This document shows positions 4,742 through 12,912 of a DNA stretch of 12,912 bases, piece by piece. Position 1 is the stretch's first letter, and each line of letters starts with the position of its first letter. Made by a program: the position numbers and the translations under genes. This DNA comes from Escherichia coli (lineage in GTDB: Bacteria > Pseudomonadota > Gammaproteobacteria > Enterobacterales > Enterobacteriaceae): the NCBI RefSeq assembly GCF_003334305.1, contig NZ_QOWS01000042.1; one strand, 5' to 3'. The notes under the pieces were generated by a model. That model saw only the letters and a program-made list of their open reading frames with translations. It was not told where the DNA came from and made no database searches.

Positions 4742-5012
4742 GTTTCAGTTCCTCGATCCGGTGTTGTCGTTGTCTCAGCAGCGCGCTGGTCTGTTCTGCT
4801 TCGGCATAGAGCCGCGCCTGCTCCCGGTTATTGGTTTCAGTCAGAATGGACAGGCTGATAAGCTGGCTGTTGCTCTTTGCCAGTGCCTGGCTTTTGCTCT
4901 GCAGCTCGTCTGCCTGCGTGCTAATGGTCTGGCTGGCATCAGCCAGCCGCCACGTCTGCCAGCCCAGCGCCGCCAGTAATAACGCCAGCACAACCAGCAG
5001 CAACCGGTTCAT
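4584..5012 (-). CDS. lysB: Inner-membrane spanin (LysB/Rz-like)
   Basis: 142 aa with an N-terminal membrane anchor (MNRLLLVVLALLLAALGW) followed by a charged, coiled-coil-like periplasmic region. Its ATG (5012..5010) overlaps the lysA stop (ATGA). Confidence 0.75.
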   Translation of the reverse strand: MNRLLLVVLALLLAALGWQTWRLADASQTISTQADELQSKSQALAKSNSQLISLSILTETNNREQARLYAEAEQTSALLRQRQHRIEELKRENEDLRRWTDTPLPADIIRLRERPTLTGGAAYRQWLSASDTVSAGSGRAAH

Positions 5013-5386
5013 GCTGCTACCTGTTGCGCCATCTGATTACGGGTGATCCAGAAGGCAATAACGGTCAGTAGATAAAAGACCAGGGTAATAGCCCACCCCG
5101 TCCAGGCGAGACTTACAACAATCAGCAATCGCATCACCCAACTGATAAATACGTTTTCTTTTCGGGTAATTGTCTTCAGTAAAGATGCCCTTAACTCCTG
5201 CCAGAGCGGGCCATTCTTAATTAACGCAGCCAGTGCTACCGGAATTACCGCCCATGTCAGCAAACAGGCTACCCAAACGCCGGACGCTGCCAGTACCGGA
5301 AAAATCCCCTGCGGATACACCATTGCTGCGATTAACAGCGCCATCCATAACATCAGAAACAGTCCGCTGATTAATTTCTTTTTCAT
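5009..5386 (-). CDS. lysA: LysA-like membrane protein (lysis regulator; proposed antiholin in P2)
   Basis: The ATG at 5386..5384 (MKKKLISGLFLML...) is preceded by GGGAG and lies 1 nt after the K stop. The product is about 125 aa with four predicted hydrophobic segments. The GTG at 5458 given by the ORF track would overlap K and is less likely. Confidence 0.65.
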   Translation of the reverse strand: MKKKLISGLFLMLWMALLIAAMVYPQGIFPVLAASGVWVACLLTWAVIPVALAALIKNGPLWQELRASLLKTITRKENVFISWVMRLLIVVSLAWTGWAITLVFYLLTVIAFWITRNQMAQQVAA

Positions 5387-9567: not shown

Positions 9568-11334
9568 ATGAACACCACACTGACACCCGCAGATCTCGAT
9601 CCCCGTCGGCAGGCCATGCTGCTGTACTTTCAGGGATACCGCGTAGCCCGCATTGCTGAAATGCTGGGCGAGAAAGTTGCAACCGTTCACAGCTGGAAGA
9701 AACGCGACAAGTGGGGTGACTATGGGCCGCTGGATCAGATGCAGCTCACCACCGCCGCACGTTACTGCCAGCTCATTATGAAGGAGCACAAAGAAGGGAA
9801 AGATTTCAAAGAAATTGACCTGCTGGCGCGCCAGTCGGAGCGCCACGCGCGGATCGGCAAGTTTAACAATGGCGGCAACGAAGCCGACTTAAACCCTAAC
9901 GTCGCCAACCGCAACAAAGGCCCGCGCCGTCAGCCGGAAAAGAATGTTTTCACCGATGAACAGATAGAGAAACTGGAAGAAATCTTCCATTCCTCCATGT
10001 TCAACTACCAGCGCCACTGGTGGGAAGCCGGAAAAACCAACCGCATCCGCAACCTGCTGAAGTCACGCCAGATCGGCGCGACCTTTTACTTTGCCCGTGA
10101 AGCCCTGATTGACGCCCTGCTTACCGGACGTAACCAGATTTTCCTTTCTGCCAGTAAGGCACAGGCTCACGTCTTTAAGCAGTACATCATCGACTTCGCC
10201 AAAGAAGTCGAGGTGGAGCTGAAAGGCGATCCGATGGTGCTTCCTAACGGGGCCACGCTTTACTTCCTCGGCACCAATGCCCGCACGGCGCAGAGTTACC
10301 ACGGCAACCTGTATCTGGATGAATATTTCTGGATACCGAAATTCCAGGAGTTGCGCAAAGTGGCTTCCGGTATGGCTATTCACAAGAAATGGCGACAAAC
10401 CTATTTTTCCACGCCATCCAGCCTGACCCACAGTGCTTATCCGTTCTGGTCCGGTGCGCTGTTCAACCGTGGACGCAACAAAGCTGACAAGGTGGACATC
10501 GACCTGTCCCACAGCAATCTGGCCCCCGGCCTGCTGTGCGCAGACGGGCAATACCGCCAGATAGTCACCGTGGAAGATGCGGTGCGCGGCGGCTGTAACC
10601 TGTTCGACCTCGACCAGCTGCGCATGGAGTACAGCCCGGACGAATACCAGAACCTGCTGATGTGCGAGTTCGTGGACGATCTCGCGTCCGTGTTCCCGCT
10701 CAGCGAACTGCAGGCGTGCATGGTGGACAGCTGGGAAGTCTGGACCGACTTTCATGCACTGGCCCTGCGCCCGTTTGGCTGGCGCGAAGTGTGGATCGGT
10801 TATGACCCGGCAAAAGGTACGCAGAACGGCGACAGTGCCGGATGCGTGGTGGTGGCTCCGCCAGCCGTGCCGGGTGGTAAGTTCCGCATTCTTGAGCGTC
10901 ACCAGTGGCGCGGGATGGACTTCCGCGCCCAGGCTGACGCCATCAAAAAACTGACCGAACAGTATAACGTGACCTATATCGGTATCGACTCGACCGGCGT
11001 CGGTCACGGGGTTTACGAGAACGTGAAAGCGTTTTTTCCTGCTGTCCGGGAGTTTGTCTATAACCCCAACGTTAAAAACGCCCTGGTACTCAAGGCCTAC
11101 GACATTATCAGCCACCGCCGTCTGGAGTTTGACGCCGGGCACACCGACATTGCGCAGTCATTTATGGCAATCCGTCGCGCTACCACTGCCAGTGGCAACC
11201 GCCCGACCTATGAAGCCAGCCGCAGCGAAGAAGCCAGCCATGCCGATCTGGCCTGGGCAACAATGCACGCACTGTTTAACGAACCGCTGCAGGGCGAGTC
11301 CGCCAATACCAGCAATATTGTGGAGATTTTTTGA
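9568..11334 (+). CDS. P: Terminase large (ATPase) subunit, P2 gpP-like
   Basis: 588 aa (P2 gpP is ~590) starting MNTTLTPADLDPRRQAMLLYFQGYRVARIAEMLGEK. It diverges from O and is followed by Q with a TGATG stop/start overlap. Confidence 0.9.
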   Translation: MNTTLTPADLDPRRQAMLLYFQGYRVARIAEMLGEKVATVHSWKKRDKWGDYGPLDQMQLTTAARYCQLIMKEHKEGKDFKEIDLLARQSERHARIGKFNNGGNEADLNPNVANRNKGPRRQPEKNVFTDEQIEKLEEIFHSSMFNYQRHWWEAGKTNRIRNLLKSRQIGATFYFAREALIDALLTGRNQIFLSASKAQAHVFKQYIIDFAKEVEVELKGDPMVLPNGATLYFLGTNARTAQSYHGNLYLDEYFWIPKFQELRKVASGMAIHKKWRQTYFSTPSSLTHSAYPFWSGALFNRGRNKADKVDIDLSHSNLAPGLLCADGQYRQIVTVEDAVRGGCNLFDLDQLRMEYSPDEYQNLLMCEFVDDLASVFPLSELQACMVDSWEVWTDFHALALRPFGWREVWIGYDPAKGTQNGDSAGCVVVAPPAVPGGKFRILERHQWRGMDFRAQADAIKKLTEQYNVTYIGIDSTGVGHGVYENVKAFFPAVREFVYNPNVKNALVLKAYDIISHRRLEFDAGHTDIAQSFMAIRRATTASGNRPTYEASRSEEASHADLAWATMHALFNEPLQGESANTSNIVEIF

Positions 11335-12368
11335 TGGGAAAGAGTAAGAAGAACCGCGCTGCGTCGACGAAACAGATCCAGCATAAAAGCCAGACTTCAG
11401 CCGAAGCATTCAGCTTCGGTGATCCCGTTCCTGTTCTGGACCGCCGCGAACTGCTGGACTATGTGGAATGCGTACAGATGGATCGTTGGTACGAGCCGCC
11501 TGTGAGTTTCGACGGACTGGCGCGAACCTTCCGCGCCGCCGTGCATCACAGCTCACCGATTGCAGTGAAGTGCAACATTCTGACCAGCACCTACATCCCT
11601 CACCCGCTGCTCAGCCAGCAGGCTTTTTCGCGTTTTGTACAGGACTATCTGGTTTTTGGTAACGCCTACCTGGAGAAACGCACAAACCGCTTCGGTGAAG
11701 TTATCGCCCTTGAGCCTGCACTGGCAAAATACACCCGACGCGGGTTAGACCTTGATACCTACTGGTTTGTGCAATACGGCATGACTACGCAGCCGTATCA
11801 GTTCACGAAAGGCAACATTTTTCATCTGATGGAACCGGACATCAACCAGGAGATCTACGGCCTGCCTGGTTATCTTTCTGCCATTCCGTCAGCTCTGCTC
11901 AACGAGTCCGCCACGCTGTTCCGCCGCAAGTATTACATTAACGGCAGTCATGCAGGCTTCATCATGTACATGACCGATGCAGCGCAGAACCAGGAGGATG
12001 TGAACAACCTCCGCAACGCGATGAAAAGCGCCAAAGGTCCTGGTAACTTCCGTAACCTGTTTATGTACTCGCCTAACGGTAAAAAGGACGGGCTTCAGAT
12101 TATCCCGTTGTCAGAAGTGGCGGCGAAGGATGAGTTCCTGAATATCAAGAACGTGAGCCGGGACGACATGATGGCGGCGCATCGTGTGCCGCCACAAATG
12201 ATGGGGATAATGCCTAATAATGTCGGGGGGTTTGGGGATGTGGAGAAGGCCAGTCGCGTATTTGTACGTAATGAATTAACGCCCTTGCAAAAAAGGCTAC
12301 AAGAGCTGAACGACTGGCTGGGCGAAGAAGTGATTAAATTTACGCCCTATATTCTTTCAGAAGAATAA
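11334..12368 (+). CDS. Q: Portal protein, P2 gpQ-like
   Basis: ATG at 11334 (the ORF-track TTG at 11331 is one codon upstream) gives 344 aa, the length recalled for P2 gpQ, starting MGKSKKNRAASTKQ. Its start overlaps the P stop. Confidence 0.9.
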   Translation: MGKSKKNRAASTKQIQHKSQTSAEAFSFGDPVPVLDRRELLDYVECVQMDRWYEPPVSFDGLARTFRAAVHHSSPIAVKCNILTSTYIPHPLLSQQAFSRFVQDYLVFGNAYLEKRTNRFGEVIALEPALAKYTRRGLDLDTYWFVQYGMTTQPYQFTKGNIFHLMEPDINQEIYGLPGYLSAIPSALLNESATLFRRKYYINGSHAGFIMYMTDAAQNQEDVNNLRNAMKSAKGPGNFRNLFMYSPNGKKDGLQIIPLSEVAAKDEFLNIKNVSRDDMMAAHRVPPQMMGIMPNNVGGFGDVEKASRVFVRNELTPLQKRLQELNDWLGEEVIKFTPYILSEE

Positions 12369-12376
12369 TTCCGAAC

Positions 12377-12727
12377 TTATTTGTTTCTTCTTTGTTCACG
12401 CCTTGTCTTGGCTTCGATAAGGCGTTGAGGTTCAGTGTAAAGCCGTTCTAAAAAAAGATAGGTAAAATCTTCAAGATCCTCAGCAGCAGCTTTATCCAAA
12501 ATACCTTCATGCGCTCCATCATTTCCGTCATCTTTAACGCATTCAGCTAGTTCCCTTAAAGCTTCAGGCAGTAGATGATTATCAAATAACCACTCCATTC
12601 TTAACCCTAGGCTTCTCCTTATTTTTTGCGCAGGCCCTTGCTCCCCATCAGGAAGAAGTCCTTTTGTGGCATAATCAAGGCAAAGCCTAAACATGGTTGC
12701 TGCTGCATTATAACAACCTATAGCCAA
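12377..12727 (-). CDS. Hypothetical small acidic protein in low-GC cargo next to the portal gene; possibly HEPN/DUF4145-like (speculative)
   Basis: 116-codon ORF in ~40-45% GC DNA, convergent with Q (stops 8 bp apart). The TTG at 12727 is preceded by GAGGAAGGGG with an 8-nt spacer; the first ATG is at 12694. No homologue recognised with confidence; the motif GNDGAHEG and a helical, acidic composition are the only hints. Confidence 0.5.
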   Translation of the reverse strand: MAIGCYNAAATMFRLCLDYATKGLLPDGEQGPAQKIRRSLGLRMEWLFDNHLLPEALRELAECVKDDGNDGAHEGILDKAAAEDLEDFTYLFLERLYTEPQRLIEAKTRREQRRNK

Positions 12728-12865
12728 ACATTTCGCCCCTTCCTCATATGCACTATTGATATGCTCAGGTAAGAACTCTGGTGGCTCCTCTACTGCTAAG
12801 TCTGCCGGTGATATAGGCCTAACAACCTCTGCAACTGATCCTACCCACGTAATATGGACACAGGC

Positions 12866-12912
12866 CTAAGCGAGGTTCTTGTTTTCAAATTGTTCCGGAC
12901 TGAGGCCGCCAC
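12866..12912 (-). CDS. 3' end of a further minus-strand gene that continues beyond the window end (product unknown)
   Basis: The same minus frame is open from the window edge to a TAG at 12868..12866, reading ...GGLSPEQFENKNLA*. Only 15 codons are visible, so the evidence is weak. Confidence 0.25.
   Translation of the reverse strand, partial: GGLSPEQFENKNLA

Follow-up and report, generated by a model that had tools for sequence, protein, structure and literature searches.

RAZR, DUF4145 domains and the P2 cargo region

PD-T7-4 came out of a functional screen and was described as a single-gene 'Zn finger-HEPN' system (PMC9519451); in 2026 it was renamed RAZR, for ring-activated zinc-finger RNase (PMC13017515). 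Its Cys4 zinc-finger domain, which sets the specificity, binds ring-forming phage proteins (T7-like portals and an Erf-like recombinase), and 24 copies of RAZR assemble around the ring (PMC13017515). The DUF4145/HEPN domains then cleave ssRNA, which leads to abortive infection; R146 and H154 are essential, and deletion of three residues in the linker abolishes function (PMC13017515). Anantharaman et al. (2013) had assigned DUF4145 to the HEPN superfamily, with zinc ribbons listed among its fusion partners (PMC3710099). In P2, the region that goes from the portal gene to the replication gene was found to be a defence hotspot in two studies (PMC9519451).

The feature described here lies at the edge of such a region, next to the P2-type portal gene Q. 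It is in all likelihood the 3' remnant (codons 81–232) of a single-gene cargo locus of a P2-like prophage, derived from a RAZR-like parent and most likely non-functional.

A DUF4145 gene cut by an IS3 element

The window, i.e. the whole stretch of 12,912 nucleotides that was analysed, is the entire draft contig QOWS01000042.1 of strain ECOR7 (GCA_003334305.1), which is broken inside an IS3 repeat. A previous sequence-only reading of this DNA had singled out a 116-residue product encoded at 12377–12727, and described it as a small acidic protein. The ORF listing confirmed the frame, on the minus strand, together with the protein sequence that had been quoted, and RefSeq/PGAP annotates the same CDS as a 'DUF4145 domain-containing protein' (WP_072689636.1). 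The product is indeed mildly acidic (pI 5.2), but it does not represent a separate small protein, as its TTG start is the codon for Leu117 of a 232-residue protein. A purine-rich stretch, GAGGAAGGGG, is found a few bases 5' of this TTG. The frame stays open for 46 codons further 5', up to a TAG at 12866–12868; these 46 codons comprise no ATG, GTG or TTG, and the surviving codons 81–116 of the longer gene no canonical start codon. A weak resemblance to DUF4145/HEPN domains had been suggested, and the Pfam profile search proposed as a check did find DUF4145 in the 162-codon frame of the window (E = 2.9e-7). PF13643 is also precomputed for the 116-residue product and nearly all of its homologues. 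PADLOC gave a weak match of the same frame to PD-T7-4 (E = 6.9e-6), while NCBIfam assigned no family to it and Rfam no RNA family to any part of the window. The ORF keeps the K..N..H motif and most of the DUF4145 region.

Positions 12369–12912 were compared by megablast with 5,426 complete E. coli genomes. In 43 of them the coverage of the query was 80% or more, and in 42 of these 43 the match ended at query base 468 (window 12836). For the final 76–77 bases of the window there were thousands of matches in E. coli, annotated as IS3. In strain LF82 and other genomes, the intact CDS is 699 bp long and encodes 232 residues (WP_000245245.1, also a 'DUF4145 domain-containing protein'); the gene is found in 41–43 of the 5,426 genomes (<1%) and is intact in 41–42. 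Escherichia phage Cartapus (Peduoviridae) encodes this protein too, as gp01, from a gene between the annotated cos site and the portal gene. A literature search with the accession WP_000245245 retrieved nothing.

What survives of the gene in the window (12377–12835, minus strand) corresponds to codons 81–232 and the stop codon, in frame, with 0 differences in 460 nucleotides from the intact LF82/Cartapus allele and no inactivating mutation. Mapped onto the LF82 protein, the annotated ORF represents residues 117–232 of an intact zinc-ribbon-DUF4145/HEPN protein. The gene breaks at 12835/12836, where the IS3 end begins, and the first 80 residues, i.e. the Cys4 zinc ribbon and most of the linker, are gone. 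The perfect identity with the intact allele indicates that the truncation is recent and says nothing of selection. The exact 116-residue product was found on 4–5 contigs versus at least 1000 for the exact 232-residue product, which is consistent with a recent and rare event.

The IS3 sequence in the window consists of the terminal 77 bases of the element (12836–12912, minus strand), starting with the inverted repeat TGATCCTACCC..., as identified from the E. coli matches and the IS3 annotation. The complete element, whose end falls at window position 12836, is 1,258 bp long. The 77 bases contain the last codons of the transposase gene and its stop codon, the TAG mentioned above. The transposase gene is co-oriented with the remnant and its stop codon lies in the same frame, probably by coincidence; read-through of this TAG would give a transposase-HEPN fusion. 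The upstream partner gene that had been mentioned for the ORF does not exist in the window, since the 77 bases of IS3 are followed by the end of the contig. On the other side, the portal gene Q (11331–12368, plus strand) is convergent with the remnant, the two stop codons being 8 bp apart, and its presence shows that the remnant lies at the side nearest to cos of the cargo region that P2-like phages have between the portal and replication genes.

Because the window is a complete draft contig of 12,912 bp that ends in IS3, a typical repeat-induced break, we considered that the truncation might be an assembly artefact and the gene intact in the real genome. This is extremely improbable in view of the closed genome of strain A7 (NZ_CP028767.1), an orangutan isolate. 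A7 was the only one of the 43 genomes to match the query end to end, and it was 100% identical to the window over the 6,544 bases compared. It has the same junction, followed by the full 1258-bp IS3 (L001 6468–7725) and then by island DNA unrelated to LF82. The 5' 240 bp of the gene were found nowhere in the A7 genome.

The A7 prophage adjoins ssrA and extends from ogr no further than the portal gene; it has neither cos nor the replication gene A, and neither a repressor nor an integrase. Its IS3 is flanked by AAC on one side and CAT on the other, which means that there is no 3-bp target-site duplication. In strain GE3, which is devoid of the prophage, this IS3 copy is also found in the ssrA island, with an identical right flank, and there the element is bordered by a perfect duplication (CAT on both sides). 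A simple insertion of IS3 into the gene was rejected, since the target-site duplication is lacking and no copy of the 5' half exists elsewhere in A7. Taken together with the situation in GE3, these observations make a deletion between two IS3 copies the simplest reading. We infer that IS3 would have inserted into the cargo gene of a P2-like prophage, and that homologous recombination between this copy and the IS3 already present in the adjacent ssrA island would then have removed the first 80 codons, the promoter, the ribosome-binding site, cos and the whole early/lysogeny half of the prophage.

Other genes of the same neighbourhood deserve mention. In GE3, the IS3 of the ssrA island lies immediately upstream of a PD-Lambda-4 A/B defence system, and in A7 a complete PD-Lambda-4 A/B (1283 and 248 residues, full-length PADLOC matches) is found just past IS3 in the ssrA-linked island (L003 25646–30289). 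At the other end of the A7 prophage, between ssrA and ogr (L003 268–1183), there is a gene for a 257-residue protein with a reverse-transcriptase domain, accompanied by a small ORF. Its best PADLOC match is the retron-type RT_VI (E = 6.6e-18); lying at the ogr end, it is possibly cargo at the second variable locus of P2.

The intact gene, its family and its relation to RAZR

In LF82, the gene order is Q, the DUF4145 gene, cos, two genes of unknown function, DinI and A. The intact gene is absent from P2, in which the previous reading had recognised no counterpart of the ORF product, and was present in 12 of 50,697 phage records. Its GC content is 40–42% vs 51–63% for the adjacent core genes. 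The gene thus lies between Q and the replication gene A and is variably present, as P2-like cargo is. Its absence from P2 and from nearly all phages, together with its foreign GC content, points to an accessory gene rather than to a component of the packaging machinery. A scan for promoters and terminators 5' of the intact gene yielded nothing convincing, the one weak site being on the wrong strand. More distant relatives in Stx/lambdoid phages have as neighbours toxin-antitoxin modules of the HigBA or RelE type and an exclusion gene that is Ren-like, and a relative in a Gordonia phage is gene 1, adjoining the terminase genes.

Some other observations were made on this prophage type. On the other side of cos in LF82, at the position of old/tin (L002 8997–9917), two genes between cos and the replication gene encode proteins of 203 residues (phrog_26391) and 86 residues (phrog_2100); neither has a PADLOC match, and both are candidate cargo. 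The window also contains, at 5009–5386 on the minus strand, between the lysozyme gene and lysB, a gene for a 125-residue protein (PGAP 'DNZ54_00345 family'; phrog_162, lysis category, E = 8e-44). In the LF82/Cartapus prophage, which is 97% identical elsewhere, a mere 48 bp or so occupy this place and the gene is missing; it is a variable gene of the lysis cassette and probably LysA-like. In several RefSeq E. coli genomes, cos-adjacent DNA of P2-like prophages is annotated as 'valyl-tRNA synthetase', which looks like an error for a short ORF.

The family of the intact protein is large and well conserved; it comprised 603 matches in a search of 5.8 billion proteins, its members being about 230 residues long; in a library clustered at 50% identity, 1,908 representatives were found at E <= 1e-3 and 221 at E <= 1e-30. 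We aligned 29 members, down to 48% identity (alignment A1). Four cysteines forming two CxxC pairs (C8, C11, C46 and C49) were invariant, as was the block C-x-K-D/N-x-G-N-D-G-A-H, which reads KDDGNDGAH (K181 to H189) in the intact protein and is encoded at 12509–12535 on the minus strand of the window. Pfam placed DUF4145 at residues 114–203 of the intact protein (E = 7e-7). The AlphaFold2 model (pLDDT 86.7) shows beta-strands within residues 3–59, then a linker, and then helices at 104–118, 122–138, 150–165 and 195–231, which make up an alpha-helical bundle of the HEPN fold.

The arginine of the Rx4-6H motif had been said not to be evident in the ORF, and this was right. The corresponding residue is a lysine (K65 of the ORF, K181 of the intact protein), and it is separated from the histidine by seven residues (K181-x7-H189), so that the canonical motif is not present. 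The presence of a lysine at the position of the catalytic arginine in this clade explains why the arginine seemed to be missing. Over 220 family sequences, the position eight residues before the histidine was occupied by K in 157 and by R in 54, an interchange that is as expected for a functional site. His189, Asn185 and the basic residue at this position are almost universally conserved.

On the intact protein, the PADLOC model of PD-T7-4 gave a weak match with partial coverage (E = 1.2e-6, 26 bits). Searches of PDB sequences with the single protein or with a profile of the close family (A1) gave no meaningful match and did not find 9Y9C. A broader profile (A2), in contrast to these, matched chain OA of 9Y9C, which is RAZR, with E = 8.8e-7; the match spanned the HEPN domain and some of the N-terminus. 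In this alignment, C145-R146-I-V-G-N-Q-A-V-H154 of RAZR falls on C179-V-K181-D-D-G-N-D-G-A-H189, the essential H154 being aligned with the conserved H189 and R146 with K181. The profile also weakly touched the ribbons of RPA12 and RPB9, and the RAZR authors report the same likeness for the zinc finger of RAZR (PMC13017515). A confident alignment of the zinc ribbons of the parent and of RAZR was not obtained. In search of a sequence that would bridge the distance to PD-T7-4, we scored relatives from phages (PhiR5_2, POCJ13, Meyran and phiBt-TXDOH) and 220-residue members of the family on the PD-T7-4 model, and all of them scored weakly (1e-3 to 3e-10). RAZR was not recovered among the best 150 matches of a search of 1.84 billion proteins, which were close subfamily members only. 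Judged by these alignments, the parent is a distant homologue of RAZR from a sister family with the same architecture, and not a strict member of PD-T7-4. By homology, the intact protein would most likely act as a phage-triggered HEPN RNase through K181, N185 and H189.

One may object that phrog_1305, which matches the intact protein over its full length (E = 9.5e-53), is labelled 'DNA binding protein' in PHROGs, and that the gene lies directly beside cos and the portal and terminase genes. The parent could then be a DNA- or RNA-binding regulatory protein or packaging accessory of P2-like phages, rather than an antiviral RNase, with a HEPN domain inactivated by the replacement of the catalytic arginine of RAZR by a lysine; about 20% of DUF4145 domains are indeed devoid of the Rx4-6H motif (PMC3710099). 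We find this improbable. The conservation of His189, Asn185 and a basic residue, with the K/R interchange described above, fits a functional site, and the scarcity of the gene in phages, its absence from P2 and its GC content do not fit a packaging function. Its relatives in Stx/lambdoid phages are found among toxin-antitoxin and exclusion morons, and both its architecture and its homology link it to a validated defence protein.

The family is a common relative of the recently solved ring-sensing RNase and as such of moderate interest. With its lysine in place of the catalytic arginine and its different zinc ribbon, it is a candidate for showing how sensor specificity and catalysis vary.

Fate of the remnant

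The promoter/terminator scan of the window found no sigma-70-like promoter between the IS3 end and the ORF, and transcription of the remnant would come only through read-through from the IS3 transposase gene. Some transcription and translation may take place, as the remnant has no inactivating mutation, is preceded by the purine-rich GAGGAAGGGG and has a co-oriented transposase gene on its 5' side. The protein made would be without sensor domain, and its first usable start, the TTG for Leu117, falls past HEPN helix alpha-1. The loss of the zinc ribbon, of most of the linker, of the native promoter and ribosome-binding site and of helix alpha-1 indicates that the remnant is most likely inert, as, to judge from RAZR, it would be unable to bind a trigger or to assemble.

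We considered whether the ORF could be a functional stand-alone mini-HEPN, expressed by read-through from IS3, that would either be constitutively active as a toxin or RNase or pair with full-length RAZR-like proteins in a dominant-negative manner. The ORF is undamaged, its sequence is identical to that of the full-length allele, it points in the same direction as the transposase gene, the stop codon of which falls in its frame, and both the K..N..H motif and the greater part of the DUF4145 region of Pfam are retained. We nevertheless regard this as very unlikely. The ORF lacks the modelled helix alpha-1 (residues 104–118), the whole zinc ribbon and the linker, parts that RAZR needs for trigger binding, oligomerisation and activation, to the point that a deletion of three linker residues suffices to abolish its defence. 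Furthermore, the identity with the intact allele reflects a recent truncation and not selection, the allele is very rare (4–5 contigs vs at least 1000), there is no promoter, and the junction is the by-product of an IS3-IS3 deletion that also wrecked the prophage.

One can also speculate, at long odds and on two counts at once, that in ECOR7 read-through from IS3 yields a HEPN fragment devoid of sensor, which forms heterodimers with full-length relatives and thereby poisons or modulates them, and that the intact family is a lysine-variant branch of the RAZR-type ring sensors, encoded by the first gene of P2-like phage genomes, directly beside the phage's own portal gene. If the intact family were such a sensor, the phage would need to prevent activation by its own portal ring.

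The reading that we favour for the window is still that of an inert fragment. The annotated 116-residue 'DUF4145 protein' would then be an illusion, a fragment of a pseudogene reported by gene callers, and the case documents how recombination between two IS3 copies decapitated both a prophage and its cargo gene. The sequence-only reading had the family right, but it mistook the nature of the object, which is a remnant of a longer gene generated by IS3.

Comparison with known systems

The parent gene resembles the known cargo of the P2 hotspot (old, tin and the systems of Rousset 2022 and Vassallo 2022) in its location in the variable region from Q to A, its low GC content and its presence in a minority of P2-like prophages. 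It differs from old and tin in position: it encodes gp01 of the packaged genome and is found on the Q side of cos, with transcription directed towards Q, whereas old and tin are on the A side. It is also unrelated to them in sequence. Compared with the DUF4145 family as a whole (PF13643, clan CL0291), the parent has the motif K-x2-G-N-x3-H, with a basic residue eight positions before the histidine, and the canonical Rx4-6H is not present as such.

We also considered DS-38 of DefensePredictor (HEP2, WP_001313577.1), a validated defence protein of E. coli in which HEPN and zinc-finger domains occur together, as they do in the parent. This candidate was rejected as the identity of the gene. DS-38 is 366 residues long and has the inverted architecture, with the HEPN domain at the N-terminus, multiple Zn fingers at the C-terminus and an RNRxxH-type motif, and it belongs to another family.

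RAZR of E. coli UMB1727 is the system that comes closest. The relationship of the parent to it is distant (about 26–32 bits), its linker is longer than that of RAZR, and the catalytic arginine is a lysine in its clade. The site in the genome is also another one: PD-T7-4 often overlaps an integrase gene, and the parent sits between cos and the portal gene of a P2-like phage. What is left in the window further differs from RAZR by the loss of the zinc ribbon, and hence of an N-terminal Cys4 sensor, as well as of most of the linker, the promoter and the start codon. The parent and RAZR are nonetheless both encoded by a single gene carried on mobile elements, and both proteins comprise about 220–230 residues, in which a linker connects a Cys4 zinc ribbon at the N-terminus to a DUF4145/HEPN domain at the C-terminus; in the latter domain, the basic residue and the histidine have the same spacing (x7 also between R146 and H154 of RAZR).
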